DNA of 53,860 nt from the NCBI GenBank assembly GCA_964469875.1, contig CAYYAA010000001.1, positions 1-53,860 of the forward strand, written 5' to 3'. The position numbers were made by a program, and so were the translations under genes. A model generated the notes under the pieces. That model searched no databases. It worked only from the letters and a program-made list of their open reading frames with translations, and had not been told where the DNA came from. Each line of letters begins with the position of its first letter. Position 1 is the first letter of the stretch. This DNA is from an uncultured Bacteroides sp. (GTDB lineage Bacteria; Bacteroidota; Bacteroidia; Bacteroidales; Muribaculaceae). This document shows, piece by piece, positions 28,242-50,192 of the stretch.

Positions 28242-28270
28242 AATACGAACAAACGTGCCTCATTACTCAA
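28242..28270 (-). promoter_or_regulatory. Putative ECF-sigma promoter ahead of GH97-GH88-MFS-PMI
   Basis: Minus strand TTGAGTA-atgaggcacgtttgtt(16 nt)-CGTATT. Confidence 0.7.
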
Positions 28271-28330
28271 TGAGACACGTCAATATTTGTACGATCTATA
28301 TGTTTCAATTATTATGTCATCGCAATTGGC

Positions 28331-29536
28331 TTATTCGTTTTTAACTCTGACATTCAACTCTTGAATGGCTGTTTTATAAGTATCATCGCCATCTGCTTCT
28401 ATTGACAATGTTATGCCAGACCACTGTCGTTTAGGATCCTTACCAAAATAATCATGGTCAAAGCGGAATGAATATTCGCCTATTTGGATAACCGGGCCTG
28501 AAATTACAACGATACGAGGCTTGACCGATGCGTGATTTTTGGATAGCTCAGTATGTTCAGCATTGACAAAAACAGGCTCTAAGGTAAATTCTTGTTGCTC
28601 TAATGATGCATTTAGTTTGATATGCGATTGAGCATTGTATGGTATCAATTCGCCATTTATGCGAGCAGAGACATACTGCATACGCTTGCCACAGCCGGCT
28701 TTGTACCTGGCACGGGTAAGGTTTGCCATTTCACTATCTTGATACCAAAATTGGTCATGTGAGTCGGTACTTTCAAATCCGTCTTCGCTCCAGCGCGAAT
28801 AATATACGCCATCTGTCGGGCGCGGATTTTGTAATGCTTTTTCGATAAACTTGGCAATATAATCTTGTGTTTCCTCTGCCATATCGAAGTGACCACGTTG
28901 AGCATCGCAGAGGAAGGAAATTTTGCTATCAGGGTACATCATGCGAAAGGCTAAAGCGGGGCGCACACGAGCCTCCCACCATTCATATTCACCTTCAATC
29001 ATCAGGCCGGGAATATTGTCTATATTGCGAGTACGTCCCCATTCGATGTTGGCGCGACCATAGCCACAGAGGTTAGTGCGCGGGGCATCGCCATGAAATG
29101 AGATGATGCAGAGTGTTCTGTCGGGATTCCATGCTGCGAAATTCCAAGGGAAAGTTGCTTGCGCAGAATGTCCAAATGGGATAATAGGTACTTTAGCAAT
29201 TTCGGGATGCTCACTGCCGCCTGCAAGTGCTGTCATAATGCTGTCAAAACGTTCTTGGCATCCATCGTTCACGTCCCAATTTTGAGAACCTCGTTGTACA
29301 AAAATCATCGCTACACCGAGGCTGTCCATCTTGTGGCAGAATTTATTACTGCGAAATAGGACTTCCTCAGTCATGTTTTGATGGCAATAAAGTGCTGCTT
29401 TCACTTCTTTACACCCGTGAGGCAACCGTAGGTAAGCACGTTGTCCCTCTTGGCCGTATGTACAATCAAACTTAACTTGCCCTATTGCTGTTAAAACGCA
29501 TACAAATAGAGCTATTGATGCCAGTATATGCTTCAT
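28331..29536 (-). CDS. Exported alpha/beta-hydrolase-like protein, possible carbohydrate esterase
   Basis: Signal peptide; IPFGHSAQA nucleophile-elbow-like motif, then GEYE and RGHF. Confidence 0.55.
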   Translation of the reverse strand: MKHILASIALFVCVLTAIGQVKFDCTYGQEGQRAYLRLPHGCKEVKAALYCHQNMTEEVLFRSNKFCHKMDSLGVAMIFVQRGSQNWDVNDGCQERFDSIMTALAGGSEHPEIAKVPIIPFGHSAQATFPWNFAAWNPDRTLCIISFHGDAPRTNLCGYGRANIEWGRTRNIDNIPGLMIEGEYEWWEARVRPALAFRMMYPDSKISFLCDAQRGHFDMAEETQDYIAKFIEKALQNPRPTDGVYYSRWSEDGFESTDSHDQFWYQDSEMANLTRARYKAGCGKRMQYVSARINGELIPYNAQSHIKLNASLEQQEFTLEPVFVNAEHTELSKNHASVKPRIVVISGPVIQIGEYSFRFDHDYFGKDPKRQWSGITLSIEADGDDTYKTAIQELNVRVKNE

Positions 29537-29584
29537 AATTGAAAATAATTAACGTTATAGCGTGTATTAATTCTATAATTGAAA

Positions 29585-29613
29585 CATACGATTAAGATTG
29601 TAAAAGTACTTAC
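29585..29613 (-). promoter_or_regulatory. Near-consensus ECF-type promoter ahead of the putative esterase
   Basis: Minus strand TAAGTA-16 nt-CGTATG. Confidence 0.45.
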
Positions 29614-29686
29614 TTGCAGTTCTATATATGGTTAAATATTATTAATGTAATACCAATTTGGTTACCATATTGGTGCTATTTTGGAT

Positions 29687-31591
29687 TTATAAATCCGAAG
29701 TGGGGATAGACCAATAGACCACGTAGCGTTCGCGGTGGATGTCGTAGAATGGTTCGACGGTAATACCGTCAGCGGTTTGCCATGTTAGCGGAGCCGTTTG
29801 CTTTAGTTCGGCAACATTTAGTCGGATATCCTTGAGGTGGTCAGGTATGTTATAGTTATATGTATAGTAGTCGTTGTAGAGTTCGGGATTGCTATCCGGT
29901 GCCGGAGACTGCATACCTTCGGTGCCAAGACGGCCGGCAAGAACGATAGGGCCGTAAAGCAAGACAACTTTAGAGCTATCATCGGGAGCTACCTCGCAGC
30001 GTAGAGAGGTGGATAATGTTAGCTCAAGTTTGTCACCGTCGCGCCATTTGCGATTGATCACAAAGTAGCCATTTTCTACCACAGATGACACCTTTTTGCC
30101 ATTTATGGTTAGAACCGGATTCTCTGCCCATTGCGGGCTACGGAGCTTGATAGTGGCGGCAGTTGGCTTGGCAACGTTGACCGACAGAGAGGCATGGTCA
30201 GCATACGGGAAGGTCGTAGATTGTGTGATAGTCAATCCTTTATGTTTCCAATTTAGTTTGGATGCAATAAACAGATTGATATATAGCTCATTATCGCCTT
30301 GGAAGTAGATATTTTCGGCATACTTGGCATGACTCTCAAAGCCACTGCCGACACAACACCAGAATGAATTTTCGGGCGTAGAGTAGACACGATGTGTTCC
30401 TGTTGCCAACGGCAGAAAGTAGCAAACCATGCCTGACCGTGTGTCTTGTTGCCCAAGGATATGGTTATAAGTAGCTGTCTCAATATAGTCGGCAATGTCA
30501 GATGATGGCTCATTGCAAAACAGATGGCGTGCCAATTTCAGCATATTGTACGTGCAGCAAGTCTCACCAGTATATCCACTGATGTGCTTTGAAAATTCTG
30601 AGGGGTTGAAGAAGTGCTCTTTATCACTAAGTTCACCGGTGGGGAATGTGTGATGAGCCATCATCTCATCCCAAAAGAAGCGGCTAAGCTCTCTTGACAG
30701 CTCATCGCCAAGCAACTCATAGCGGCGTATCTCGGCAATGGTTTTCGGGATAAAAGTGTTAGTGTGTTTCTTGCCCATATCGCCGTTATGAGCTTTCAAA
30801 GGGTCAATTACATCATTATGGTAGAAGAACTCTGCCATTTCACGATAATGCTCATTTGCAGTTATGGCATATAGCGAATAGAGCGCATCGTTAATGCCGC
30901 CAAACTCATTGCGAATCATGCGTTGTCGTATGGCATCATCGAGAGGTGATAGTTTTGCGTAAATCCAGTCACCTAACTTTGTTGCGACTTCGAGCGCATC
31001 AGTGTTGTCACAATAAAGATATTGGTCGATAAGTCCGGCAAGGATTTTGTGAATGGTGTACCACGGAGCCCACACCGATTCGCCCCGGATATTGCGATTG
31101 ATAAGTTCCTCGGGGAAAGCACTTACATAGCCATTGCCAAATACATCTTGCGCTTTTTGGAGGCCTGCTACAATAGAATCGCCTTTAATCTTAAAAATAT
31201 CGCTGCCGGTTGAGGCGTACATTAAGGCATAAGCGCTCATCAAGTGACCTGTCGTATGTCCACGCAATTCACAATCAAGCGATTCCCACCCGCCATATTT
31301 TTTGACCGTCATATAGCCACCTTCACGACCGGCAAACACTCCGGCATTAGTGTAAAATGAATGTAGCAAACGATTTATGCAAATATTAACCATCCACACC
31401 GAATCACGTTGCATATTCTCTCTAAACCTACCGGGCAACAGTGTCACATCATTAAGTGGCAAGCATTTAACCCTTGTAGGTTTAACATTCACGACTTTGA
31501 TTTTTTGCTCAAACAGCCCCGGATAAAGCGACTGAGCCGATGCGACACTGCTTATTAGCAATGCCGAAACAAGTAATATGTATTTACACAT
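29687..31591 (-). CDS. GH127/GH146 family beta-L-arabinofuranosidase-like protein
   Basis: YGGWE, LRGHTTGH, WAPWY..HKI, EFGG, HTNT, ETCCTYNMLKL, FWCCVGSG. Confidence 0.88.
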   Translation of the reverse strand: MCKYILLVSALLISSVASAQSLYPGLFEQKIKVVNVKPTRVKCLPLNDVTLLPGRFRENMQRDSVWMVNICINRLLHSFYTNAGVFAGREGGYMTVKKYGGWESLDCELRGHTTGHLMSAYALMYASTGSDIFKIKGDSIVAGLQKAQDVFGNGYVSAFPEELINRNIRGESVWAPWYTIHKILAGLIDQYLYCDNTDALEVATKLGDWIYAKLSPLDDAIRQRMIRNEFGGINDALYSLYAITANEHYREMAEFFYHNDVIDPLKAHNGDMGKKHTNTFIPKTIAEIRRYELLGDELSRELSRFFWDEMMAHHTFPTGELSDKEHFFNPSEFSKHISGYTGETCCTYNMLKLARHLFCNEPSSDIADYIETATYNHILGQQDTRSGMVCYFLPLATGTHRVYSTPENSFWCCVGSGFESHAKYAENIYFQGDNELYINLFIASKLNWKHKGLTITQSTTFPYADHASLSVNVAKPTAATIKLRSPQWAENPVLTINGKKVSSVVENGYFVINRKWRDGDKLELTLSTSLRCEVAPDDSSKVVLLYGPIVLAGRLGTEGMQSPAPDSNPELYNDYYTYNYNIPDHLKDIRLNVAELKQTAPLTWQTADGITVEPFYDIHRERYVVYWSIPTSDL

Positions 31592-33864
31592 TAGAGTATT
31601 CCTTTGAGTGTATAGAGATTATTTGCTTTTGTGAACGATGACTTAACGCCATTAACTTTGACCGAATTAACTGGCCTTTGCAAGTTAATTCCAAAGTGAT
31701 AACGCGGCTGACCGTTCAGTTGCAAGTCAAGCACATCGCCATTAGTCTGTGCTATGAAATTCAACTTTGCCAATGACGAGAACCACACCATGTCAGCGCG
31801 GCGCAACAAACTGCCTGAGCTTACAAAAATGCGTTCTGCTTCATTTGCAGTCTTACCTTCTTGATAAGTCACAGCAAACATATAGGCATCAGTTGCCCAA
31901 CCATCTGCTTCAATCCACGAATTGACGTGCATCAGCCTGCCATCTGCCAACTGATTGATGTATAAATCAGTAACCATTCCGTTCCACTTAATTTGCACAC
32001 CTATCCAATCTTTGCCCTCACGTCGCTCAATTGTTGGCAATGTTTGTTGATTGGGACTATCTTTGAGTATAATCGCATTTACAGCTTTGATGCGGTCAAA
32101 ATTACCGGGAAGGATGAATGAATAGTATTCTTCGGTGTTTTTTAAAGTTTCATCGGGAGCTTCACGCACTTCCCAATACAGCATTTCAGGGTAGTCATGC
32201 ACGTAGTTGCTCGGCGCAAGCATTTCAGGATAAAGCGGCATCACAACCACAGACGAATTTCCTTTTGTCACTTCAAGCGTACCACCTTTTTTGACTGTCT
32301 TGCCTCCGGGATGCCATAGCCATTCAAATTGCCCCGGCTCATGACTCTTTATATCATCAATAATAAATACTACATTATCCATCCATAGGAAGTGGCGGAA
32401 GTTACGCGCAAAGCTGTCGCTCATCGGGCCTGTGCCATCAGCAAGAACATATCGAATATCCGAGCCGTCAAGCAAATAGTGCAACGAGCCTGAGAGCATC
32501 GTGCCATGATATTGCTGATATGTAGATTGACCTTTGCCATTAAATTTAACGACATTATGTGCATCACTTTGGAAGAAATATTTGCGATAATTTTCATTGC
32601 CATACGAGCAGTTGCCCGCATCCTTAATAATGTCTTCCCCATTGTGGAATAAGATGAAAGAGTTAGCATCCGCATGTGAGTGATTCCACGTCATGCCACT
32701 TTTAACAGCCAACATCGTGGCATCCTTCTCCCATGAATTTCGCATCGTTGCCCACCCGAAATCCGGCCAAAGTTTTGATTTAGCAATGTTCGGCACTGAC
32801 GGAGCACTCGTCAAGTCAGGCGTATATAAGAAGCCCATTGGATAATTGCGAGGGAAGCCTTCACGATGCTGATTTGGCTCAACTTGCGTTGCATACCACA
32901 GGGTGGTAGCATCTTTTACGCCCATAGAATAGGCTAAGAACATTGAGCTCTCACCTGTCACGTTCTTATGGCTATCACCGAAATTAATGCTATACAACAT
33001 ACCGGAGCGTGGATATGAAGCATGCGCAAAAAAGTCTGCCAAGAGTTGCATCTGCGGCAAGGCTTCGAGTTTTGCTCCGGGATGAGCGTTGAGCCAGGCT
33101 TGACGCAGTAACAAGGCTTCGGTTATACCAAAACTCGCATAATTAATTGATTCATACATACCTCCGCCGTCGTCAAAAGTCTTTGGTTTGTTTTGGATAA
33201 CATCACCTGCAAAGTCAAACCACTCAGGCAATGCCTCAACAGCCATTTGCGCAGCCTTTTCAGCCTCAGTTATCTCATTGGAAATTGCCATTGCGAGCAA
33301 TCCACCCATTCCGACACATGATGACCACCAATTATGCCCCATTGAGTTCAGGGAGTGAATGCGTGATGGTTCAAGCAACCAGTCACCCAACAACGGCTCG
33401 CCGGCAAGTCGCCACACTCCATTGGCTATGGTCTTGCGGTCTGACACCGACAGCTTGTTGTATATAGCATCAAATGCCACTGCAATTTGGAATGATTTAT
33501 GCGCCATTTGCAACTCACTACGCCATGCCGGTGTGCGTTGCATCATCTCTTTATCTGCCCATGACTCAATCTTGGCTATTTCGAGCAACATACTGCGCAG
33601 CTTTTCAAAATAGCGATTATCGCCGGTCACTTGATATGCAAGTGCCAGATATTCCATGCGCCGATGGTCATTCTTTGCAAGCAATTCTTCGGCTGTTGCT
33701 TTGATGTCATTCCACGCACGAGCTTGCACGGTATCAGTCTTTGTTCTCTCTACAGCGGCATTAACTCGCTCTGTGGTGAACAACAACGACGGATGTTTAA
33801 TCTTTGCTACTGTTGGTAGTGCTATTGCTAATAATGTGATTACACTGAGGATATATCTTGTCAT
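31591..33864 (-). CDS. Heparinase II/III-like polysaccharide lyase
   Basis: HNWW, YES..Y, NFGDS, HSHADANSF, IKDAG..Y, AHN; start reassigned to ATG 33864 (MTRYIL signal peptide, downstream of the promoter motif). Confidence 0.85.
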   Translation of the reverse strand: MTRYILSVITLLAIALPTVAKIKHPSLLFTTERVNAAVERTKTDTVQARAWNDIKATAEELLAKNDHRRMEYLALAYQVTGDNRYFEKLRSMLLEIAKIESWADKEMMQRTPAWRSELQMAHKSFQIAVAFDAIYNKLSVSDRKTIANGVWRLAGEPLLGDWLLEPSRIHSLNSMGHNWWSSCVGMGGLLAMAISNEITEAEKAAQMAVEALPEWFDFAGDVIQNKPKTFDDGGGMYESINYASFGITEALLLRQAWLNAHPGAKLEALPQMQLLADFFAHASYPRSGMLYSINFGDSHKNVTGESSMFLAYSMGVKDATTLWYATQVEPNQHREGFPRNYPMGFLYTPDLTSAPSVPNIAKSKLWPDFGWATMRNSWEKDATMLAVKSGMTWNHSHADANSFILFHNGEDIIKDAGNCSYGNENYRKYFFQSDAHNVVKFNGKGQSTYQQYHGTMLSGSLHYLLDGSDIRYVLADGTGPMSDSFARNFRHFLWMDNVVFIIDDIKSHEPGQFEWLWHPGGKTVKKGGTLEVTKGNSSVVVMPLYPEMLAPSNYVHDYPEMLYWEVREAPDETLKNTEEYYSFILPGNFDRIKAVNAIILKDSPNQQTLPTIERREGKDWIGVQIKWNGMVTDLYINQLADGRLMHVNSWIEADGWATDAYMFAVTYQEGKTANEAERIFVSSGSLLRRADMVWFSSLAKLNFIAQTNGDVLDLQLNGQPRYHFGINLQRPVNSVKVNGVKSSFTKANNLYTLKGIL

Positions 33865-33891
33865 GGTGAGTTTGTTATAGTTATGCATATC

Positions 33892-33920
33892 AATACGAAC
33901 CGATTTGCAAATCTACTCAA
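33892..33920 (-). promoter_or_regulatory. Putative ECF-sigma promoter ahead of the lyase-GH127 operon
   Basis: Minus strand TTGAGTA-gatttgcaaatcggtt(16 nt)-CGTATT; overlaps a TAGATTTG primary-sigma-like element. Confidence 0.7.
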
Positions 33921-33957
33921 TTTATAACAAACATAAAAATACATCGTCATGTTATTA

Positions 33958-33996
33958 AACAAGTACAGAGCTGAATCACTTCAGCCCTGTACTTTG
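33958..33996 (-). terminator. Orphan hairpin/terminator in the divergent intergenic region
   Basis: AAGTACAGAGCTGAA-TCAC-TTCAGCCCTGTACTT; the single mismatch is a G-U pair when read on the minus strand. Confidence 0.55.
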
Positions 33997-34215
33997 TATT
34001 ATTATTTGGAATTTAATATTAAACGGCTTATTAAGAGTAAATTCCATATTAATACCATGTTAATAACCTAAACCCTAAAGAAACAATTCCAATATGAATT
34101 GTCATACCTTTTATCATTAAATACTAACGAGTAGAGAATATTACTCAATCGCAAAGCCATATTTTTTTTGATTGCCTCACTTTTGGCATTACTTACGCTA
34201 AAATTTAAGTACGGA

Positions 34216-34244
34216 TTGAGTAATCAATAACGAGTATCCGTAAT
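34216..34244 (+). promoter_or_regulatory. Putative ECF-sigma promoter ahead of DUF4861
   Basis: TTGAGTA-atcaataacgagtatc(16 nt)-CGTAAT. Confidence 0.7.
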
Positions 34245-34284
34245 ATATTGTTGGACATATTTCTCAATAACGCATTAATATATA

Positions 34285-35445: not shown

Positions 35446-35594
35446 TCTTGCAATCAGAATAAAACAAATTACAATAAATCTCCGGCTAAAATTTCAGAAC
35501 GGCGATTTTTATTTTTTTATTGCATTTTTGCAAAATAAATTGTAATTTTGGACTGAAAACTGACAATGCAAAACCGAGTATCACACCATAAATC

Positions 35595-38408: not shown

Positions 38409-38430
38409 CGCTTTTATTGTCAAACCCTTC

Positions 38431-38469
38431 AACGAGTCTTAATTTATGCAATTGAGACTCGTTTTGTTT
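38431..38469 (+). terminator. Hairpin after the regulator gene, overlapping AGTCTCAA-type motifs
   Basis: AACGAGTCTTAATT-TATGC-AATTGAGACTCGTT followed by TTGTTT. Confidence 0.6.
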
Positions 38470-38476
38470 ATTTTGT

Positions 38477-38517
38477 AGTCTCAAAAAATTAAATGCAACA
38501 AGAGTCTCAAAAAAATT
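38477..38517 (+). repeat. Direct repeat AGTCTCAAAAAA x2 (26-bp period), candidate AraC operator
   Basis: Copies start at 38477 and 38503; TAATTTTG promoter element downstream at 38617-38624. Confidence 0.55.
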
Positions 38518-38674
38518 ATATATCTATAAGACAACAAGTTACAAAAAATAACATATCAACAAATTTAAAGAGATATTGTTCGGGTAAAAATCTTTTTTTA
38601 GCAGATATTGGGGTTGTAATTTTGCGATGTTCTAACATCTAAAATCTAATTAACAACCCTAAAACCAAAACGCC

Positions 38675-39312: not shown

Positions 39313-42300
39313 ATGAACTTATCCTTAAAATTGAAACACGATCTGTTTCCGATTGCCCGGGCTATCATTGTCAGCACGGTAGTCGCCGGAGGTAGCGCAG
39401 TGTACGCTCATGCTAATCCGCCGGCTGTTGCATCTGCGGCAACTCCGGTCAACAGTAAAATTTCCGGTACCATTGTTGATGCTTCCGGTGAGCCTATCAT
39501 CGGAGCAAGCGTTCTTGTCAAAGGCACAAAGCTCGGTGCTACAACAGACATTGACGGAAACTTCACAATCTCGAATGTCAACGGCTCTACGCTGGTTATC
39601 TCATATGTTGGCATGAAAACACAAGAAATCAATATTAGCGGCAAAACGCACATTGATGTCGTAATGCAAGACAATACTGAGATGCTATCAGAAGTTGTGG
39701 TAGTAGGTTACGGTACCCAGAAAAAGGAAACCATGACCGGTGCCGTCACCGCAATCGGAGCCAAGGAACTTGAAGGAAAAGGAACTCTGTCAAGCCCTAT
39801 GCAAGCACTACAAGGTCAAGTACCGGGTGCTATCATCACGCGTTCATCAACAGCGCCTGGTGATGAGTCATGGAGCATGACTTTACGCGGTCAGACCTCC
39901 AAAAACGGAGCGACACCTCTTATTATCATTGATGGTGTTGAATATGAAAGCGTTAATGAACTCCGACTCATAAATCCATCAGATATTGAATCAATCAACT
40001 TTCTTAAGGATGCTGCGGCTTCAATATATGGTTCAAAAGCCGCCGGAGGTGTTGTTCTCGTAACTACAAAGAAAGCAAAAGACGGAACATTTCGTGTAGA
40101 CTATTCAGGCTCAGTTACTGGCAAGTTCAAAGGTATGGTCCAAAAAAAGTTGAGTCTTTCAGAATGGGCAAATTCAACTATTGAAGCACGTACAAATGAT
40201 GGCTATGATGATTCTGATACATGGATTAAGTACGCAAAGTTTGCACTGGCTTATCCTGATCAATACCTCGATTGGAACTATACCGGCAATCCTTTCAATG
40301 CATTTCAAGATACAAATGATATAACATTCTTTGATACAGATTGGGATGACATCCTTTGGGGTGATTCTTACTCTACTCAACATGAATTAGCCATCACCGG
40401 TGGTCGCGAAGGTAACACCATGCGTCTATCTTTAGGATATATGCACGATGACTCTAACTTGAAATGGGGTACTAACTTTAATAATAGGTATAATGTCCGT
40501 CTTACCAACTCTGTAGACTTTACCAAATGGTTCCACCTCGAATCTGTTATCGGCTATAACCGCCAGCACCAAATCGCTCCAACTATGATTTCATCGGCAC
40601 TTAATGCCGCACAACAGCCCGGTTTTCCTTCTTCTACAAAGAATGGTCTACCTTATGGCTGGGGTACTTGGAAAACACCTAACTGGCAATGCGAACTCGG
40701 TGGTGATAACATCTTAAACGTTTCGGCCCTCAACATCAGCGAGAACATGAAATTTGATCTTTATGACACACTCGCTCTCCATGTTGTTGTCGGTTATAAC
40801 ACTTCCGCCGCCAGTCGTGACACAAATCGCAACAATATAACATTCTATAATTACGCAGGCACAGACATTGTTAAGGCTGCATCTGAATCAGCTTCGGATA
40901 GCTATTACGAAAAATCAAATAGCCGTACTGACTTCTATTCATTTCAAGGATATTTGGATTGGAATAGAACATTCAACAAACTTCACAACCTCAAGTTGAT
41001 GGCAGGATGGCAATACAATCTTAAACAATACGATTACGTAAAAACACACGTTACCGAAACTCAAGAATCTCTTGAAGTGATCAATGGATCCGGAACAGTC
41101 ACCTATACTTCAAATGCTTGGGAAGAAGCAATGATGAGCATCTACGGACGTGCCAACTATGACTACAACGGCAAATACTTGGTCGAAGGTCAGTTCCGCC
41201 GAGATGGTTCTTCAAAATTCCGCGGTTCTAACCGCTGGGCTAACTTCGGCGGTATTTCTCTCGGATGGCGAGTGCTCCAAGAAAATTTTGCTGAAAATCT
41301 TCGCAATTGGTGGGATGAATTAAAAATACGTCTCTCTTACGGTACAGTCGGTAATCAAAGTGGTATCGACCGATACTCAGGTACAAACTTATATAATTTG
41401 AAGACCGATGGTGCACTTGTTGGTGATGCTATCCTTTCTTACATCGCAACCAATGGTAAGTTGCCATCATCAGATCGCACTTGGGAGCGCATCAATAACT
41501 ACAATGTCGGTATTGATTTCGGTTTCTTCAAAAATCGCTTGACAGGTACTGTGGAGTTGTTTGAGAAAAAACTTAACAACATGCTTATTGATGTTCAGTA
41601 TGCCGGTACACTTGGCGCTACTGCACCAACAGGCAACTACGGCGAATTTAAATCTTGGGGATACGAAGGTCAACTCAATTGGCACGACCGCATCGGAAAT
41701 GTAAATTACAACATCGGTGGAACATTTACCTTTGCTGATAACAAGTTAATAAACAATGGTACTGAAAATGTCGCTATCAAGAGTGGCGTCCGCAGTGACC
41801 GTGAAGGCTATCCTCTCAATTCTGTATTCGGTTTCTTATATGCCGGTAAGATTCAAGACGATGCTACCCTTCAAGCGTACAAAGACCGCTATGCAGACTC
41901 TTATACCGGAGACGGCACGCTTAGCCTTATACGTAAAGGTGATAATATGTTTAAGGATGTCAATGGTGATGGCAAACTCGATGAGAACGATTTGGTATAT
42001 CTCGGCACTGAAGATCCAAAAATCCAATTCTCATTCAACGCCGGCGTTGAATGGAAAGGCATTGATGTAAGCGTAATATTCCAAGGCGCAGCTAAGCGCA
42101 CAATCTGGCGTCGCGAAACGAGTTCATCGCCCGACCCATGGCGCATTCCGACTTACGCAGCATATCGTCAATCTTCAAACCACTTCCTCGGAAATGTTTG
42201 GAGCGAAGATAATCCCGACGGCTTCTATCCTTCGCTTACTAACCAATCCGGCATTAATAGCTATAACTATCAATGCTCTTCATGGTCAGTACAAGATGGT

Positions 42301-42528
42301 TCATACATCCGTCTTAAGAATCTAACTATTGGTTACACTCTTCCTAAAAATCTCATTGCAAAGACTCATTGCTTGAGTAATGTTCGTGTATCTGTAACAG
42401 CGTCAGACCTCTGGGAATGGTGCAAGACTACTGACGGCTACGACCCCGAAGCAGATGGTGTCGTTTCAGGTACCACTAAATATCCATTCACCCGAAATGT
42501 TACTTTCGGCTTAAATGTTTCGTTCTAA
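39313..42528 (+). CDS. susC: SusC/RagA TonB-dependent transporter (no STN domain)
   Basis: GEPIIGASV, EVVVVGYGTQKK, LKDAAASIYGS.AAGGVVLVTTK, RRDGSSKF, terminal GLNVSF. Confidence 0.96.
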   Translation: MNLSLKLKHDLFPIARAIIVSTVVAGGSAVYAHANPPAVASAATPVNSKISGTIVDASGEPIIGASVLVKGTKLGATTDIDGNFTISNVNGSTLVISYVGMKTQEINISGKTHIDVVMQDNTEMLSEVVVVGYGTQKKETMTGAVTAIGAKELEGKGTLSSPMQALQGQVPGAIITRSSTAPGDESWSMTLRGQTSKNGATPLIIIDGVEYESVNELRLINPSDIESINFLKDAAASIYGSKAAGGVVLVTTKKAKDGTFRVDYSGSVTGKFKGMVQKKLSLSEWANSTIEARTNDGYDDSDTWIKYAKFALAYPDQYLDWNYTGNPFNAFQDTNDITFFDTDWDDILWGDSYSTQHELAITGGREGNTMRLSLGYMHDDSNLKWGTNFNNRYNVRLTNSVDFTKWFHLESVIGYNRQHQIAPTMISSALNAAQQPGFPSSTKNGLPYGWGTWKTPNWQCELGGDNILNVSALNISENMKFDLYDTLALHVVVGYNTSAASRDTNRNNITFYNYAGTDIVKAASESASDSYYEKSNSRTDFYSFQGYLDWNRTFNKLHNLKLMAGWQYNLKQYDYVKTHVTETQESLEVINGSGTVTYTSNAWEEAMMSIYGRANYDYNGKYLVEGQFRRDGSSKFRGSNRWANFGGISLGWRVLQENFAENLRNWWDELKIRLSYGTVGNQSGIDRYSGTNLYNLKTDGALVGDAILSYIATNGKLPSSDRTWERINNYNVGIDFGFFKNRLTGTVELFEKKLNNMLIDVQYAGTLGATAPTGNYGEFKSWGYEGQLNWHDRIGNVNYNIGGTFTFADNKLINNGTENVAIKSGVRSDREGYPLNSVFGFLYAGKIQDDATLQAYKDRYADSYTGDGTLSLIRKGDNMFKDVNGDGKLDENDLVYLGTEDPKIQFSFNAGVEWKGIDVSVIFQGAAKRTIWRRETSSSPDPWRIPTYAAYRQSSNHFLGNVWSEDNPDGFYPSLTNQSGINSYNYQCSSWSVQDGSYIRLKNLTIGYTLPKNLIAKTHCLSNVRVSVTASDLWEWCKTTDGYDPEADGVVSGTTKYPFTRNVTFGLNVSF

Positions 42529-42555
42529 TAATCACGTCTAAATCAGAATTTCGAA

Positions 42556-44256
42556 ATGAATAACATTTTTAAATATATTTCGGTCGCTGCATTGGCTCTC
42601 CTCTCTACAGCTTGTATGGATCTTGATCCTAAGGACCAACTTTCTGATGGAAACCTATGGAACAAAGCTGACGACTTCCAACAGTTCACCAATCAAATGT
42701 ATTCGTGGACTTACCACTTCTCGTCGGTCGTTGCCGATGGAACACACTCAGATCTTCGCTCTGACTTGATTGCCGATAAAGGTAGTCTCAACGAATATGC
42801 TAACGGCACAAATACCGTTCCCGCTTCTGATGGCAACTACACAAGTGGTTACACACATATCCGCAACTGCAACCTATTGCTCGAAAAGGCAGCAGGATAT
42901 GCAGACCAAGAATCAATTACTCAAGCCGTTGGCGAGGCTTACTTCTTCCGCGCATACAGCTACTTCGAAATGCTTCGTCTTTATGGCGATCTTATTATCA
43001 TAACTCGCACGATTGACACGGATAGCGAAGAACTCTATGCAACTCGCAGCAATCGTACAGATGTGATGGATCTCATCATTTCAGATCTCCACAATGCCAT
43101 AGACCATCTCAAGGACTTCAACTCACTCGAAGCCGGTCGCATCTCGCGTGAAGGAGCACTTGCTTATCTCAGTCGTGTCGCTTTATATGAAGGCACTTGG
43201 CAAAAATTCCACAACGACAATACAGCTAAAGCGAATAGCTATCTTGACGAAGCTGCAAAAGCTGCACGCGAAGTTATTGATGGCGGTCAATTCCAATTGT
43301 TCTATAACAGCGTTCTCGGCAATACTTCTCAAAAGTACATGTTTATCCTCGAAGATGTGGCCAAAAGTAATCCGGCCGGTCTTGGCAAGTCTGATAATAA
43401 AGAATACATCTTTGCTCGCCGTTTCAACGACACCGATGCACGACATTCGATGAACCTCACTGTTGGTTGCTTGAATAATGCGCAAATTATCTCACGCAAA
43501 ATGGCGCAAATGTATCTCTGTTCTGATGGCCTTCCAATCGATAAATCATCGAAATTTCAAGGCTATGACAAGATGAATTCCGAATGGCAAAACCGCGATA
43601 ACCGTATGCGATACAGTATGTCTATGCCGGGCGACGAATTCTTTAACGGAACAGCCTCTGCTACAGCTCGTCACAACTGGGATGAAACCGACAAAGGTAC
43701 AGTTCTCACACCGACAACCGGAACTCGCTATTTCGCACAAAAATGGGCTGCCGAACGCGAAGTTGTTTCTCGCTACGAAACTTATGACTTCCCCATCATT
43801 CGTTATGCTGAAGTCTTGCTCAACTATGCTGAAGCAATTTACGAACGTGATGGCAAAATCTCAGATGACGACCTCAACTTGTCGCTCAACCTCACTCGTC
43901 GCCGTGTTAACTCAGAAATGCCGGCTTTGACTAATAATTTCGTTATCTCAAATGGTCTGGATATGCGAGAAGAAATCCGTCGTGAACGAACCGTTGAATT
44001 CTTCAACGAAGGATTCCGCCGCGATGACCTCTGTCGTTGGAAAACCGCTGAAACAGAAATGTCCGGCAACTTCCTCGGCGTAAAATGGACAGGCGAATTT
44101 GTCCTCAAAGGTGGTTCAATGGCTTATGACCTTGATGCTGATGGTTGCATCATCTATGAGGCTAATCGTCAGTTCGCGCAAAAGAACTATCTCTATCCTC
44201 TGCCGTCAGAGCAACTTCAACTCAATCCTAACTTGGAACAAAACCCCGGTTGGTAA
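42556..44256 (+). CDS. susD: SusD/RagB lipoprotein
   Basis: Lipobox STAC, GEAYFFRAY, RYAEVLLNYAEA, ERTVEF..EG.R..DL.RW, NPNLEQNPGW. Confidence 0.96.
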   Translation: MNNIFKYISVAALALLSTACMDLDPKDQLSDGNLWNKADDFQQFTNQMYSWTYHFSSVVADGTHSDLRSDLIADKGSLNEYANGTNTVPASDGNYTSGYTHIRNCNLLLEKAAGYADQESITQAVGEAYFFRAYSYFEMLRLYGDLIIITRTIDTDSEELYATRSNRTDVMDLIISDLHNAIDHLKDFNSLEAGRISREGALAYLSRVALYEGTWQKFHNDNTAKANSYLDEAAKAAREVIDGGQFQLFYNSVLGNTSQKYMFILEDVAKSNPAGLGKSDNKEYIFARRFNDTDARHSMNLTVGCLNNAQIISRKMAQMYLCSDGLPIDKSSKFQGYDKMNSEWQNRDNRMRYSMSMPGDEFFNGTASATARHNWDETDKGTVLTPTTGTRYFAQKWAAEREVVSRYETYDFPIIRYAEVLLNYAEAIYERDGKISDDDLNLSLNLTRRRVNSEMPALTNNFVISNGLDMREEIRRERTVEFFNEGFRRDDLCRWKTAETEMSGNFLGVKWTGEFVLKGGSMAYDLDADGCIIYEANRQFAQKNYLYPLPSEQLQLNPNLEQNPGW

Positions 44257-44276
44257 CGTCTTAATTAGATTAAATT

Positions 44277-45731
44277 ATGAACAAGATATTAAAAGCGAGC
44301 GCACTATGTTTAGGACTATGTGCGGCAAGTGTAGCTATCGTTAGCTGTGACGATGATAAAATCTTCACGACCGACTACACTATGGTCTATCCGATTGATG
44401 ACATTCAATTTATATGCGGTGAAGGCGATGAATATCCAATGCAACCGGGCCAAACATATCAATTACAATGGACCGTTGGCCCTAAAGATATTGATGATGA
44501 AACTATCGTATTTAGCTCATCTGACGAATCTATTGCAACCGTCACCCAATCAGGTCTGATTACAGCTGTTGCCCCCGGCGATGCTCTTATCACAGCCACT
44601 CCACCCATCGGTTTCGGTGCTACAGCTACTTTGCTCGTACACGTTAAAGAGAACATCGTCTTGACGGAACAAATCATTGTTGCGGTTAATGGCGAAGAAG
44701 CAGAAGAATACTTTGAATCTGACCAAGTACAACTCACCGCAACAATTCTCCCTGCTGACCATGATTACAATTACTTGACATGGTCTTCTGCCGATGAATC
44801 TATCGCAATTGTCGATGAAACAGGTCTTGTCACTCTTCTTAAAGAAGGCACAGCGACAATCACCGCCACTGCCAACGATGGCACAAACGTGAAAGGTTCG
44901 TGGTCTACACAAATCCACAAGATGGTCAATGTCGAGAATCTCACAATCTCTCCCCTATCAGACGAAGTTTGCCTCGATCGCGGCTCATTTGCGTTGGATG
45001 TAACATATTCTCCCACCGGCGCTACCGCAGGCACTGTCGTTTGGTCATCATCTGATGAAACTATTGCGACTGTTGAACGCGGCAAAGTCACTCCGAAGGC
45101 ATTTGGCTCTTGCACCATCACAGGTACTGCTCCAAATGGCAAATCTGCATCAGTTCAGGTAACAGTGGCTAACGGATGGCGCATCTGGGATGTTGACAAC
45201 AATTGGGGGCAATTCTTATCCGCAACATCAGGCGCAGGCAATGACAAGAACGGTGCTCGTCCCGGATATTTCCGTATCACCTTCCCTGCCTCAACCGCTA
45301 AATATCGCGCAGACTTCTCTTGGCAAGGCATAAGTGCCAACAATCCGGTCTACATGAACGTGGCTGAATATCCAATTTTAGCTATGCGCATTGACCACCT
45401 CTCAAATCAAGGGGCAAACATTAAAGTAGGCACTCACGGCAATCTCAAACTTGATGCAGTTGACAGTTACTCAGGTGTCAATGTCGGCTCTCCAAACCCG
45501 AAGACAATTGTCCTCGAAGACGGCTCTTATCTTTTCTATTACGATACGCTCGCATCTAAATATCCCGATGGAGCAATTGCATGGCGCGTATTTGGTGTCA
45601 AAGTTGCCGACTGGCTGCAAGATGCCATTGATAAGGATGCCGCATACTATGACATCAAGTGGATTCGTACTTTCAAATCTCTCGCTGAAGCTGAAGCCTT
45701 TGCAAACGACGAAGTCGCTGCCGGCGAATAA
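44277..45731 (+). CDS. Surface glycan-binding lipoprotein: 3 Big_2 Ig-like domains + DUF4979-like domain
   Basis: Lipobox VSC-DDDK; three (W/F)SSxDExIAxV repeats; C-terminal KYRAD..YPILA..LKLD..VAD..Y..KWIRTFKS. Confidence 0.75.
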   Translation: MNKILKASALCLGLCAASVAIVSCDDDKIFTTDYTMVYPIDDIQFICGEGDEYPMQPGQTYQLQWTVGPKDIDDETIVFSSSDESIATVTQSGLITAVAPGDALITATPPIGFGATATLLVHVKENIVLTEQIIVAVNGEEAEEYFESDQVQLTATILPADHDYNYLTWSSADESIAIVDETGLVTLLKEGTATITATANDGTNVKGSWSTQIHKMVNVENLTISPLSDEVCLDRGSFALDVTYSPTGATAGTVVWSSSDETIATVERGKVTPKAFGSCTITGTAPNGKSASVQVTVANGWRIWDVDNNWGQFLSATSGAGNDKNGARPGYFRITFPASTAKYRADFSWQGISANNPVYMNVAEYPILAMRIDHLSNQGANIKVGTHGNLKLDAVDSYSGVNVGSPNPKTIVLEDGSYLFYYDTLASKYPDGAIAWRVFGVKVADWLQDAIDKDAAYYDIKWIRTFKSLAEAEAFANDEVAAGE

Positions 45732-45743
45732 AATCTTATCAAT

Positions 45744-45787
45744 AAGCATCCGGGCTTTAATGCCACGAACAATAAAGCCCGATGCTT
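45744..45787 (+). terminator. Intergenic hairpin (terminator or mRNA-stabilising)
   Basis: AAGCATCCGGGCTTTA / TAAAGCCCGATGCTT with one bulge. Confidence 0.5.
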
Positions 45788-45809
45788 TAACAAACTCAAA
45801 AGAACAACA

Positions 45810-47201
45810 ATGAAAAAAATTAAGATATTAAATCTCGCATTTGCATGCTCAATGACGTTGATGGCTTTCGGAGCTTCCTCTTGCAACGAAATTCCCGATG
45901 AAGCATCTATCGACATCAACGAATGGACATCACAACCCGATACATATATCGCAAAGACTTATACGCTAAGTCACCCTTGTATGCTCCACTCAAAAAGTGA
46001 TATTGATTATGTAAAAGCTCACCTCACACAATCGCCATGGCGGGAAGCATACGCCGAGTTGTGCGCCACAAGCTACGCACAACCGACATATCAAATGCAC
46101 ACTCCAAAAGAATACATCGCACGCCTTGATGCAACAAACTGGGCTGACGGCGGTGGTCGCTGGTCTCAATACGGAGTTGAAGATTGTTGGTATTCAGGTG
46201 TCCAAAACTCATTCCTATGGCTCGCCGCAGATGCTGATGCCGCCTACCAAAATGCTATCCGCTATCAACTTGAAGGCAACACAGCCTGCGCTGAAAAGGC
46301 TCGCGAGATACTTGTTGAATGGGCTAAGGTTAACAAAGGTGTTATTATCGGCAAAAAAAGCACTCTCAACGGCACTGTTATTGACCCTAATGAATACCTC
46401 ATTCTGATTAATATTCACCACGTAGCCAACGCAGCAGAACTTATTCGAGACTACAACAACTTTGGCAATTCTGATGACTTCAAAACCGTATGCTCTTGGC
46501 TAAAAACTTATTGGGGTAGTCTCGCTGAGACTTTACTCGAAAGTCTGCAAGGTGGTCGCCACACATGGATGAACTGGGATCTTGCTGCCATGACCGCCGA
46601 ATTATCTATCGGCACACTTTGCGATGATCAAGATATGATTAACTACGCAATGCGTGAATTTTATGAAGGCGACCATCCCGGCAATCTCGTACTGCTCGGC
46701 GCTCCCTACTTGTATGATGATCCTGACAGCACCGAAAAAATCGCGCAAGGCAACGAATGTGGTCGTGATCAAGGGCACAACACCCTTTGCGCAGCACTAC
46801 TCGGAGCACTCTGTCAAATGGGACTAAATGTCGGAGAAGACCTCTTTGCCGCAAACGACTACCGCGCAGTTGCTATGGCTGAATATGTTGCAAAAATCAA
46901 CGTTTCCAAGAACTTGGACTGCACAACATTCCTCCACACATTGTCATCAATACCATTCACATCTTATACCTACGGCGATGCCGGAACAATGTCACAAATT
47001 TCAATAGATGGTCGTGGTCAGTTCCGCCCATGTTGGGATCTCTGGGTCGGTTACTGCCGCACTCATGGCATCTCTTGTAAGTATGCTTCGGAATTTGCCG
47101 AGCAAAAACGTCCTGACCAAGGTGTCGGCTACTATGGCACCAGCTCAACCGGTTATGACCAAATCGGCTATACCACATTGATGCACTACCGACCCGAATA
47201 A
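45810..47201 (+). CDS. Alginate-lyase-fold (PF05426-like) lipoprotein
   Basis: Lipobox ASSC; HPCMLH, DADAAYQNA, NWDLAAM, ECGRDQGH, EYVAK, DQIGYTTL. Confidence 0.78.
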   Translation: MKKIKILNLAFACSMTLMAFGASSCNEIPDEASIDINEWTSQPDTYIAKTYTLSHPCMLHSKSDIDYVKAHLTQSPWREAYAELCATSYAQPTYQMHTPKEYIARLDATNWADGGGRWSQYGVEDCWYSGVQNSFLWLAADADAAYQNAIRYQLEGNTACAEKAREILVEWAKVNKGVIIGKKSTLNGTVIDPNEYLILINIHHVANAAELIRDYNNFGNSDDFKTVCSWLKTYWGSLAETLLESLQGGRHTWMNWDLAAMTAELSIGTLCDDQDMINYAMREFYEGDHPGNLVLLGAPYLYDDPDSTEKIAQGNECGRDQGHNTLCAALLGALCQMGLNVGEDLFAANDYRAVAMAEYVAKINVSKNLDCTTFLHTLSSIPFTSYTYGDAGTMSQISIDGRGQFRPCWDLWVGYCRTHGISCKYASEFAEQKRPDQGVGYYGTSSTGYDQIGYTTLMHYRPE

Positions 47202-47228
47202 CTACGAGAACTGTTGTTATATTTGATC

Positions 47229-47270
47229 ACGGATGAATGAGTAATTAAGCTCGTTCATCCGTATTTTTAT
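47229..47270 (+). promoter_or_regulatory. Terminator-like hairpin that contains a putative ECF promoter
   Basis: ACGGATGAATGAG / CTCGTTCATCCGT followed by ATTTTT; ATGAGTA (47237-43)-16 nt-CGTATT (47260-65). Confidence 0.68.
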
Positions 47271-47308
47271 GTACTAATCACGAATAAAATCATAAACTGT
47301 AAATAGAA

Positions 47309-48736
47309 ATGAGACGTTTATTAACATCTATCACAACAGCGATGTCAGTCTTTGCATTGGTCTGTGGGCAAACCACGCTAAAAGGCTTACACACATCTGA
47401 AGACATCTCTTATGTAAGACAACAATTAGACACTCAATCCTCGCCGTGGACGGATGCTTTTTCTCGTTTGGAAACAAGCAAATATGCCTCAACAAGCTAC
47501 ACTGCATCGCCGGTTGAATGGCTTGCTCGACTTAACTCTTCGGTATGGGGTGAACTTAACGACCGCTGGACTGCCGCAGGTATTGAAGACCTTTACGTTG
47601 AAGGTATCTGCAACAACTACACATATCTCATGCGAGATGCCGCTGCTGCATACCAATTAGCATTGAGATATGTACTGACAGATGACGAGCAATATGCCGA
47701 TGCCGCCAAAAGCATACTCACTGCATGGACAAATACAAACAAAGGATTGCTTCGCAACTCAGCAGGTGAACTGATTGACCCAAACGAATACCTGATTTTA
47801 ATTCAGGCACATCAACTCGCAGTTGCCGCAGAACTACTTCGCAATAGTGACAATTGGGACACGACTGATGAGTTCGCCTCTGTATGTCAATGGCTGAAAG
47901 ACACATTCTATGTTCCTGCTTCCGACTTTTTGAAGCACCACAATAACACCACCGACCACTATTGGTTGAACTGGGATTTAGCAGCAATGACATCCGTGCT
48001 ATCTGTCGGCATAGTGTGCGACGATGAGACAATGCAGGCAGAAGCTATTGAATACTTCAAACATGGTGACGGTGTTGGGTGCATCACTAATGCAGTGCCT
48101 TATCTCCACGATGACCCATCAGGCACAGGCGAGACACTTGGTCAATGCAACGAATCAGGTCGCGACCAAGGTCACGCTACACTCTGCGCTGCCCTACTCG
48201 GTGCATTCTGTCAAATGGCAAAGGGTGTAGGTGAAGACCTATTCGCATACGATGACTATCGCGCCATAGCTATGGCTGAATATATCGCTAAGTACAACAT
48301 AACCGAAGGCGATGACTTCAAGTATCCTGCCGAAACAATTCCGTTCACGTCTTACACCTATGGCGACCAAGGTCAAATGGACTCACTCTCAGCTGATAGT
48401 CGCGGCACACAACGACCCGGATGGGACATCTGGGTCGGATACTGCAACGCTAACGAGCGCGCCTGCAAATACAGCGATGAAATTGCAGCTCTTGACAGAC
48501 CGGATGCCGGAGGTGGCACTTACGGCTCTAACTCCGGAGGTTTCGACCAACTCGGATTCTCAACTCTTATGTTCTACCGCGCTCCTCTCGGCAGCACAAC
48601 ACTTGTCTCAAACATCTTAAGCCATAACGAAACAGAAGCCGAATACTACACCATCCAAGGCATAAAAGTGAGCAATCCTACTTCCGGTTTATTCATCGTA
48701 AAGAGAGGAAATACTTTTACAAAAGTAATCCTTTAG
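47309..48736 (+). CDS. Alginate-lyase-fold protein, paralogue with a short T9SS-type C-terminal domain
   Basis: Same motifs (DAAAAYQ, IDPNEYLILI, NWDLAAM, ESGRDQGH, DQLGFSTL); tail EYYTIQGIKVSNPTSGLFIVKRGNTFTKVIL. Confidence 0.78.
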   Translation: MRRLLTSITTAMSVFALVCGQTTLKGLHTSEDISYVRQQLDTQSSPWTDAFSRLETSKYASTSYTASPVEWLARLNSSVWGELNDRWTAAGIEDLYVEGICNNYTYLMRDAAAAYQLALRYVLTDDEQYADAAKSILTAWTNTNKGLLRNSAGELIDPNEYLILIQAHQLAVAAELLRNSDNWDTTDEFASVCQWLKDTFYVPASDFLKHHNNTTDHYWLNWDLAAMTSVLSVGIVCDDETMQAEAIEYFKHGDGVGCITNAVPYLHDDPSGTGETLGQCNESGRDQGHATLCAALLGAFCQMAKGVGEDLFAYDDYRAIAMAEYIAKYNITEGDDFKYPAETIPFTSYTYGDQGQMDSLSADSRGTQRPGWDIWVGYCNANERACKYSDEIAALDRPDAGGGTYGSNSGGFDQLGFSTLMFYRAPLGSTTLVSNILSHNETEAEYYTIQGIKVSNPTSGLFIVKRGNTFTKVIL

Positions 48737-48739
48737 CTC

Positions 48740-50167
48740 ATGAACATTAAACGTAACTTATTATTGGCATTAGCTGCAATCTCTATGGTTGCGACTAATG
48801 CCACTGTTATCACCTACCCTGCGCCGACTGAGGTGGAGTTAAACAAATCATTCTCCGTCGAAGTGCGTCAAGGCAATGAATGGTTGCCAGTTGATGTCTA
48901 CAAAGTGAAAGTTGACGAGGTTGTAAACGCTGCACATAAAGTCAGCCACAGCTCTATGGCGTATTTTGACTTTGACGGATCGGTCGATGTTCGCATCATT
49001 TCAAATGCTCGTCATATCGTCTCAGCAAAAGTGCGTCCCCTTTCATTTAACATATCAAATTTTGTCAACGGTGACACCATCACCTTCACTCTCGACAGAC
49101 CTCGCGGCCTCTCTATCGAAATCAATGGCGATATATTTGATAACCTACAATTATTTGCCAACGCCATTGATAGTAACGCACCATCTCCTAAATCAATAAA
49201 AAAGTTGGTCAAGAGTGGCAAATACATCTACTTCGCTCCCGGCTACCATAAACTCAATAAAGACCTCATTGTCAAATCAGGCCAGACTGTCTATGTCGCC
49301 GGTGGCGCTGTGGTTGACGGACATATTTGGGTGGACGGCGCACACGATGTAAATATATCAGGACACGGAATGGTTTACCCTCAGAAAGAGGGTATAAAAA
49401 TAATGCGTAGCCACAACGTCAAAGTCAACGGGCTGTTCACAACACAATGCCCCATTGGCGAATGTGACAGCGTATCCGTAGATAACGTGAAAGTAATGAG
49501 CTGGTATGGTTGGGGCGATGGTTTCAATGTATTTGCAAGCAGTAATGTTCGATTTAACAATGTGTTTGCGAGAACTTCTGATGATTGCACAACAATCTAT
49601 GCCACGCGCTTAGGCTACAACGGCGGAAGCCACGATATTATTATGGAAAATTCCACGCTCTGGGCTGATGTCGCTCACCCCATTTTCATTGGACTGCACA
49701 GCGAGACTGACAGCCTCGAAACCATCGAAAACGCATGGTATCGCAACATTGACATTCTCGATATGAACGAGAAACAAATTGACTATCAAGGTGCATTAGC
49801 TATCGCCTGTGGTGATAATAACACGGTGCGAAACATACACTTCGAGGACATACGCATTGAAGACTTCAGACAAGGCAAACTCTTTGACATCCGCATCTGC
49901 TATAATCAGAAATATTGTACTGCTCCCGGACTCGCCATTGATAATATCTATTTTGATAACATCATTTACAGAGGAAGCCACTCCGAGCCATCACTTATCA
50001 TCGGCTATGACAGCGACCGAACAATCAGCAATATTCACTTCAAAAATTTGATAATAAACGGCGTAAAAATCTCCGATGAGATGCCCGGCAAACCTAAATG
50101 GTATAAGACCGGTGACATGGCTCGAATTTTTATCGGCGAACACACAAAAAATATCACATTCGATTGA
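48740..50167 (+). CDS. GH28-like parallel beta-helix glycosidase
   Basis: Signal peptide; YFAPGYH, VYVAGGA, WGDG, RTSDDC, WADVAHPI. Confidence 0.72.
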   Translation: MNIKRNLLLALAAISMVATNATVITYPAPTEVELNKSFSVEVRQGNEWLPVDVYKVKVDEVVNAAHKVSHSSMAYFDFDGSVDVRIISNARHIVSAKVRPLSFNISNFVNGDTITFTLDRPRGLSIEINGDIFDNLQLFANAIDSNAPSPKSIKKLVKSGKYIYFAPGYHKLNKDLIVKSGQTVYVAGGAVVDGHIWVDGAHDVNISGHGMVYPQKEGIKIMRSHNVKVNGLFTTQCPIGECDSVSVDNVKVMSWYGWGDGFNVFASSNVRFNNVFARTSDDCTTIYATRLGYNGGSHDIIMENSTLWADVAHPIFIGLHSETDSLETIENAWYRNIDILDMNEKQIDYQGALAIACGDNNTVRNIHFEDIRIEDFRQGKLFDIRICYNQKYCTAPGLAIDNIYFDNIIYRGSHSEPSLIIGYDSDRTISNIHFKNLIINGVKISDEMPGKPKWYKTGDMARIFIGEHTKNITFD

Positions 50168-50192
50168 GTATTATCTAAATGTCGTCCGTATT
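50164..50192 (+). promoter_or_regulatory. Putative ECF-sigma promoter ahead of the 495-aa secreted protein
   Basis: TTGAGTA-ttatctaaatgtcgtc(16 nt)-CGTATT; the -35 element overlaps the upstream TGA stop. Confidence 0.7.

Follow-up and report, generated by a model that had tools for sequence, protein, structure and literature searches.

A conserved bipartite motif as the probable promoter of an extracytoplasmic function sigma factor in a Muribaculaceae polysaccharide utilization locus

How a set of outlying enzyme genes can be brought under common control is the question raised by the polysaccharide utilization locus (PUL) carried on contig CAYYAA010000001.1 of an uncultured Bacteroides sp. 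(GTDB family Muribaculaceae; GenBank assembly GCA_964469875.1), of which positions 1 to 53,860 of the forward strand were analyzed and are hereafter called the window. The gene of an extracytoplasmic function (ECF) sigma factor (38675-39175) lies in this PUL between a sensor-regulator gene and susC, and an earlier note on this DNA had proposed that a bipartite motif found before several surrounding genes is the promoter and regulon mark of that sigma. The proposal, which is drawn from sequence, survived every comparative test that was run. The element TT(G/A)(A/G)GT(A/G)-N16-CGTAT is very probably the promoter of sigma 38675-39175 (rough probability 0.88), because it is linked to the clade of this sigma, is absent from eight loci holding the sensor alone, has halves matching those found with relatives sharing the same recognition residues, and shows a spacing that fits known start sites.

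Motif sites in the window and in related loci

The five exact GAGTA-N16-CGTA cores described earlier were all recovered at the same places and on the same strands (Table 1), together with their extensions (T/A)TGAGTA and TYCGTAWT, for a mean expectation of 0.30 in 100 shuffles of the window (maximum 3, never 5). In the window, other spacers gave one match (14 nt) or none (15, 17 and 18 nt). The whole assembly (2.29 Mb, 77% complete) contained 14 exact cores, five of them within the window, and six of the 14 genome-wide matches of at least 15 bits fell in this PUL (p 2e-9). A matrix built from other genomes gave 18.3-23.2 bits to the five window sites and reached 13 bits in none of 1375 other upstream regions of the genome. 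Both near-matches pointed out previously do exist, and strong sites were present in front of orthologues of the 401-aa gene that follows the weaker one. The sites had been placed about 25-45 nt before start codons; this held for four of them (28, 42, 45 and 32 nt from CGTA to ATG) but not for the heparinase-like gene, whose first ATG is 5 nt and second in-frame ATG 29 nt away, so that the motif implies the second one (33864) as the putative start. Genes flanking the sites encode GH97, a heparinase II/III-like lyase, DUF4861, an alginate-lyase-like protein and a secreted protein without Pfam hit. None of the five exact sites was followed by a primary-sigma box (TAnnTTTG), and the motif was missing, as formerly noted, from the upstream regions of the window's sigma and susC genes (best matrix scores -0.4 and -0.7). 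A GGGTT-N16-CATA look-alike before susC scored -0.7 to -1.9 and was rejected.

A de novo search was performed on 303 upstream regions from other genomes; they came from 32 of 34 locus pieces, as two were near-duplicates, and the window was left out. When gapped 4-mer pairs were counted without a seed, GAGT-N17-CGTA(T) ranked first, in 14-15 regions versus 3 of 1612 controls. The consensus of the refined matrix, TT(G/A)(A/G)GT(A/G)-N16-CGTAT, is wider at -35 than the (T/A)TGAGTA box valid for the window sites, as it includes TTGAGTR, TTAAGTR and TTAGGTR. Scores of at least 13 bits were reached in 24 of 303 clade regions, versus 1 of 237 regions beside other ECF genes. Likewise, five named Bacteroides genomes contained 21 strict matches, of which 12 lay at most 16 kb from a clade sigma (in B. 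xylanisolvens, 4 of 4), while 63 family genomes without a close sigma hit gave 35 scattered matches, similar to the reversed control.

The spacer proved to be rigid. Outside training (window included), 18 upstream sites with 16 nt were found in 10 loci, any other length from 13 to 19 nt giving at most one, and 18 of 19 held-out matches stood upstream of co-oriented genes. ECF promoters are given a spacer range of 14-17 nt in the accessible text of PMC5758882; the present layout, bipartite and oriented before genes, occurs with 16 nt only. In orthologous PULs the motif is conserved, intergenic sites being present in 24 of 37 clade loci, before 59 genes, mostly those of GH97, heparinase-like, GH28-like and other enzymes and never those of sigma or SusC. 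Eight loci with a sensor and no adjacent sigma (144 kb) held no motif site, and two sites near sensors in genome G083 can be explained by a divergent clade sigma that turned up there. No trans regulon was found: three distant strict matches in Bacteroides genomes were inspected, and all fell inside genes. A strict match on the sigma contig of genome G086 also lies inside a gene and was treated as chance; a loose form of the pattern, run over 61 relatives, matched too freely to tell genomes apart.

In a ten-member subclade (Muribaculaceae-labelled records and genomes of the same genus), the full motif is present inside the sigma gene in nine members, 136-297 nt before the start of the next long open reading frame; the window's own sigma gene is without such an internal site. 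Eight non-duplicate sigma genes of this subclade (44-82% identity) share 26 conserved positions of high degeneracy, and of these the Val (GTT) and Arg (CGT) codons of the motif alone use an invariant codon, the motif being preserved at synonymous positions. This intragenic motif is likely to be an internal promoter for susC.

The sigma factor, its recognition residues and its sensor

The sigma factor matched Sigma70_r2, Sigma70_r4_2 and TIGR02937 above cut-off, as ECF (group 4) sigmas do. Its score against TIGR02985 (115.7 bits) was below the curated cut-off of 126.4, and clade members of other genomes scored 113.7-125.8 bits. The clade comprised 44 of 91 rows in a quick tree (Shimodaira-Hasegawa-like approximate likelihood ratio test, 99). 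Database proteins matching the sigma at E 1e-30 or better numbered 352, and the named records with clade members were Bacteroidales. A copy 43-48% identical was found in 6 of 60 relatives, all remaining hits being at about 32% or below. The alignment-based scan for clade loci covered approximately 7 of 64 database parts; single-protein scans of genome and metagenome contigs gave no matches. Tandem PULs with four clade sigmas and repeated lyase modules were observed over 120 kb in B. congonensis (L109-L114), an apparent expansion.

SusC and SusD are encoded at positions +1 and +2 downstream of the sigma, with no FecR at +1. FecR was found neither in the genome (77% complete) nor beside the clade members checked, where the two short downstream genes scanned were fimbrillin-like and DUF4959. 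The sigma, called orphan in the earlier note, is not unregulated; it sits behind a conserved kinase-less sensor-AraC gene with boxes of its own. The suggestion that it may not be autoregulated holds, no score above 8.7 being obtained upstream of 31 sigma genes.

Residues N65, D69 and R72 were invariant in 43 of 43 clade members, and the best Protein Data Bank match of the clade profile was SigW, the N-x-x-x-D-x-x-R stretch being common to both. Among 70 FecR-coupled relatives, the region before fecR displayed a hexamer-N16-NGTH layout with bases following sigma residues: D69 accompanied CGT at -10 (9 of 16 versus 2 of 37), and R-T-V-E-x-H or -H-Q helices accompanied the -35 box of the clade (4 of 14 versus 1 of 56). 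Other pairings observed before fecR (L190-L279, L043-L097) were GG-rich -35 boxes with Q-type helices, TACCC with K-Y-H helices, and GAT at -10 with K or R at 69. This residue-base variation could possibly represent a recognition code for ECF240. A sister subclade (helix T-V-E-C-Q) follows a full hybrid two-component system (HTCS) gene in the L104:4601 and L041:5120 region, and a GG-rich variant, TAAGGG-N16-CGTA, precedes this HTCS gene.

Concerning start sites, 9 of 10 distinct ones of B. thetaiotaomicron anti-sigma genes, among the matches listed (30 of 45 rows) and judged by eye, lie 8-9 nt after an NGT(A/T) box, and several have TAAGTA, TAAGTG, TTAGTA or TAGGGG 16 nt before the -10 box (accessible part of PMC7366714). 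At the 51 clade sites, a purine is found at +8 in 42 and at +10 in 43; transcription is for this reason predicted to start 8-10 nt after CGTA, near 28236, 33886, 34250, 47271 and 50198, more likely than at the 5-8 nt expected beforehand. No primary start was given for BT_0139, BT_0132, BT_0145 or BT_0146 in the accessible part of the rich-medium start-site table of B. thetaiotaomicron.

The sensor preceding the sigma has 937 aa, versus about 1350 for HTCS, and domain scans gave no HisKA, HATPase_c or Response_reg hit; Y_Y_Y scored in its orthologues and not in the window's protein. The sensor-sigma-susC order was found in most clade loci, with 33 sensor-sigma pairs in 37 loci. Upstream of sigma genes, the primary-sigma -7 box, with the consensus TAnnTTTG (PMC7366714, same part), was present in 28 of 28 cases, GAGAT at -47 in 18, GTCT at -64 in 14, and a distal palindrome, at about -140 to -118 when anchored on the -7 box, in 21. 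In the window, the distal palindrome (38431-38463) is also terminator-like. The same boxes stand before susC where a sensor has no sigma (third locus of G086, second sensor of G098). Five kinase-less sensor-AraC genes occur in G086 (L151-L155), three of them directly before susC without a sigma, and the sensor would thus also act alone. A motif site ahead of the sensor, or of one of two co-oriented genes before it, was found in 20 of 33 cassettes; in the window this is site 34218, before the DUF4861 gene that is co-oriented with the sensor gene and immediately ahead of it.

Table 1. Features of the PUL and its predicted control elements (positions in the window unless a locus is named)
Feature	Position	Strand	Basis
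ECF-type promoter motif before GH97	28242..28270, core 28244-28268	-	Exact core, 23.2 bits
Weak near-match TAAGTA-N16-CGTA before 401-aa gene	29585..29613	-	11.5 bits (matrix trained without window)
ECF-type promoter motif before heparinase II/III-like lyase and GH127	33892..33920, core 33894-33918	-	19.3 bits
Near-match with AGTA at -10; candidate second upstream promoter of heparinase-like lyase/GH127 unit	34120..34148	-	18.8 bits (matrix trained without window)
ECF-type promoter motif before DUF4861	34216..34244, core 34218-34242	+	18.3 bits
ECF-type promoter motif before lyase 2 and GH28-like gene	47237..47265, core 47239-47263	+	20.3 bits
ECF-type promoter motif before 495-aa secreted protein	50164..50192, core 50166-50190	+	18.8 bits
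Intragenic full-score motif in sigma gene	L013:5950-5985; also L012, L019, L033, L034, L036, L037, L038, L040
Primary-sigma -7 box (TAATTTTG) before sensor gene	35543..35550	+	TAnnTTTG consensus
Kinase-less sensor-regulator: Reg_prop propeller, one transmembrane stretch (~aa 752-782), AraC helix-turn-helix	35595..38408	+	Pfam
Distal operator-like boxes, predicted sensor-AraC sites; GTCTYA half-sites 38436, 38478, 38504	38431..38510	+	Fixed-distance recurrence
Proximal operator-like box ending GAGAT, -47 from -7 box, predicted sensor-AraC site	38553..38574	+	Fixed-distance recurrence
Primary-sigma -7 box (TAATTTTG) of sigma-susC-susD operon	38617..38624	+	TAnnTTTG consensus
ECF sigma factor, 166 aa, anti-sigma-less clade related to TIGR02985/ECF240	38675..39175	+	Hidden Markov models, Pfam, tree
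susC, susD, Ig-like/DUF4979 lipoprotein, lyase 1	39313..47201	+	Pfam; motif absent
Left satellite units: heparinase-like lyase, GH127, 401-aa protein, GH97, GH88, MFS transporter, PMI-like	22776..33888	-	Pfam
Right satellite units: lyase 2, GH28-like, secreted 495-aa protein	47309..51710	+	Pfam

A possible relay and its alternatives

A whole relay, leading from the sensor to the sigma-susCD operon and from there to the satellite enzymes without an anti-sigma, appears probable. The sensor would be made at basal level from a primary-sigma promoter and would bind an oligosaccharide in the periplasm, by analogy with the HTCS sensors described in the accessible text of PMC3243724. Its AraC domain would activate the primary-sigma promoter at 38617, and sigma, SusC and SusD would be made as one unit, which likely also takes in the lipoprotein and lyase 1. 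In the absence of an anti-sigma, the sigma would be active once made and would initiate at five to seven satellite promoters, some 8-10 nt past CGTA, and several of these promoters would be placed at terminators of upstream units; the GH97 operon likely continues to GH88, the MFS transporter and PMI. Positive feedback may come from a motif site preceding the sensor gene or its immediate upstream neighbour.

A number of observations weigh against these interpretations. For all clade members, the link between motif and sigma is one of sequence comparison. Of the 37 loci, 13 have no intergenic site; five of these have an intragenic one, and G086, G091, G135, G104, L027, L031, L039 and L078 have neither in the stretch covered; the sigma of G086 is 30% identical, and its covered stretch measures 51 kb. 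A single genome, which has a divergent clade sigma elsewhere, supplies five of the eight sensor-only loci, and the genomes are related, so that counts overstate independence. The helix class compared among FecR-coupled relatives was set after inspecting the data, 10 of its 14 members were below 7 bits, and an unseeded Gibbs search on FecR promoters gave nothing else than T/A-rich base composition. The genome being 77% complete, a further sigma gene may be absent from the assembly. With regard to the upper tier, the window's distal box matches the consensus worse than those of relatives do, and the wiring varies: sensor and sigma are divergent in G091 and G135, and a full HTCS stands ahead of the sigma in L041/L104 and in the second locus of G103.

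The alternative that fares best retains the motif as the promoter of the sigma and modifies the upper tier. The sigma may be checked post-translation, by the cytoplasmic part of the sensor, a distant anti-sigma or proteolysis, or the sensor may be a repressor. It is true that ECF240-like sigmas are normally FecR-controlled (accessible text of PMC7826278), that one HTCS acts as a repressor (accessible text of PMC13292587) and that gene order varies in a few loci. However, besides the lack of FecR in the recovered 77% of the genome and beside the clade members checked, the proximal box keeps a constant distance upstream from the primary promoter, as an activator site would, and sensors without sigma show the same boxes before susC. 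We consider this alternative unlikely.

Another explanation can be based on the sensor itself, the motif being then the DNA site of its AraC domain. The sensor accompanies the sigma in most loci, and HTCS regulators have as their sites direct repeats with a spacing of about 21 bp (accessible text of PMC3878776), to which GTA...GTA with a period of 20 could be likened. The halves of the motif (TTGAGTR and TTCGTAT) are nevertheless unlike, GTA being all that repeats; no site was found in the eight sensor-only loci, a different motif travels with the sensor, and the same geometry exists before fecR genes without a sensor. Moreover, at 41 of 51 sites the stretch from motif to ATG contains no primary-sigma box. 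Such a role is very unlikely.

Less likely again is that a different sigma, with its gene elsewhere, reads the motif as an ECF promoter. Near-identical promoters exist for some FecR-coupled sigmas and the assembly is incomplete. On the other hand, six other ECF-size sigmas were recovered from the genome and inspected, and all lacked the R-T-V-E-x-H helix; promoters elsewhere in the genome are not marked by the motif; and one subclade retains the motif within the clade's own sigma gene.

The lyase 2 site (47239) is nested in a strong intrinsic terminator (47229-47262, hairpin z -5.4), the -35 box of the GH97 site (28244) lies in the loop of a terminator-like palindrome also fitting an AraC-type box (hairpin z -3.1), and site 50166 overlaps a hairpin as well. 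That the motif is part of an RNA element, such as a terminator or antiterminator signal, has hardly any likelihood, as the hairpin register differs from site to site, the halves pair with each other in 4 of 51 sites, no motif position is consistently paired, and sites 33894 and 34218, which face apart and have no upstream transcript, are without significant structure. The GH97 -35 box is centred in the palindrome at 28255-28280 (-), which matches both a terminator and the sensor's box, and dual control is therefore possible there.

Gene content, relation to known systems and significance

The gene labels proposed earlier agreed with Pfam, with the exception of 50223-51710, which has no Pfam hit; its designation as DUF4979-like comes down to a weak resemblance (24% over 161 aa, E 5e-4) to the DUF4979 portion of 44277-45731. 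The presence of lyases together with GH88 points to a uronic-acid polymer as substrate of the PUL. In an orthologous PUL (L014:2541-5787), genes for alpha-N-acetylglucosaminidase (NAGLU) and an HGSNAT-like protein follow a motif site, which hints at substrates that contain amino sugars. At the contig end (51809-53858, +), a 62-aa acidic small open reading frame is followed by a lipoprotein gene cut by the end of the contig, without the motif; the C-terminal part of this lipoprotein is 72% identical to the 495-aa secreted protein, of which sequence comparison makes it a recent duplication. Metatranscriptome contigs from four runs cover parts of the PUL, some ending a short distance past predicted starts (34273, 34284 and 38642), and were not used as evidence because contigs cannot show starts or strand. 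Elsewhere, the window contains a cobalamin riboswitch (10735-10970, +) before an operon starting at 11041, and a class A RNase P RNA (20707-21092, +).

Three classes of PUL regulator are commonly distinguished: HTCS, SusR-like proteins and ECF/anti-sigma pairs. The sensor resembles HTCS in its propeller/Y_Y_Y periplasmic part, membrane span, AraC output and boxes upstream of a primary-sigma promoter; it differs by the missing kinase and receiver, by boxes that look palindromic instead of 21-bp direct repeats, and by likely controlling one operon and handing the rest to the sigma. In the cases of HrpL, Streptomyces sigma-E with CseBC, and ECF282, a regulator turns on the sigma gene and the sigma turns on a dispersed regulon. 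Sigma-W of B. subtilis is autoregulated and has an anti-sigma. Its promoters (TGAAAC, CGTA; accessible text of PMC5758882) have the identical -10 core CGTA, whereas the -35 box of the clade is without AAC, matching a different region-4.2 helix. HrpL, sigma-E and ECF282, which are anti-sigma-less ECFs controlled at transcription, are named in the accessible text of PMC7826278; unlike in these relays, the upper tier is here a single-chain membrane sensor-AraC protein and the regulon is one PUL. The FecR-coupled PUL sigmas of ECF240/TIGR02985 (same part of PMC7826278) are the nearest family by hidden Markov models, stand beside susC-susD, are not autoregulated and belong to Bacteroidetes, and the promoter geometry (hexamer, 16 nt, NGTH) is that seen before their fecR genes. 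The present clade is without FecR, scores below cut-off, forms its own clade in the quick tree and has outlying enzymes, not a fecR-susC operon, as targets. ECF240 is listed there without a conserved promoter motif. The dCas12f-associated sigma-E (accessible text of PMC13472631) is likewise a Bacteroidetes ECF without FecR near susCD; here, no dCas12f gene and no C-terminal extension (166 aa) are present, and the promoter motif is fixed in DNA.

In B. thetaiotaomicron, BT0138-BT0139-BT0140 are likely orthologues of the sensor-sigma-susC cassette. BT0138 (2748 bp) is listed among HTCS without motif or substrate in the accessible text of PMC3878776, BT0139 is annotated with a GO term for transcription initiation, and a 51-nt stretch of BT0140 is, by eye, about 44/51 identical to the susC start region of L022. 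No description of the motif or cassette was found in the literature searched, most subscription papers lying outside its coverage; nor was a two-step sensor-sigma control of PULs found described there, and by sequence the sigma would not be a regular ECF240 nor the sensor a full HTCS. In their accessible parts, a 2013 regulon study (PMC3878776) calls ECF promoter prediction open and a 2020 map (PMC7366714) gives no motif as known for any B. thetaiotaomicron ECF. A further promoter motif of B. thetaiotaomicron, PM2, has a near-palindromic -30/-10 consensus.

A motif of this precision makes the regulon testable without knowing the identity of the glycan, since an expressed sigma should switch the regulon on. 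It would also tell which of the outlying enzymes are part of a PUL for an uncharacterised uronic-acid glycan and, with its sigma, would supply a compact orthogonal promoter-sigma pair for Bacteroides engineering. A truncated HTCS-like sensor and an anti-sigma-less sigma would be linked in a single relay, whose conservation extends from Bacteroides to genomes that are Muribaculaceae-like and Prevotella-like. It is conceivable, with somewhat less than even chances, that this represents a third mode of PUL control across Bacteroidales, in which a kinase-less sensor drives an anti-sigma-less amplifier ECF with feedback onto the sensor, a promoter within the sigma codons boosts susC in one subclade, and the residue-base links amount to a code for the whole ECF240 expansion.

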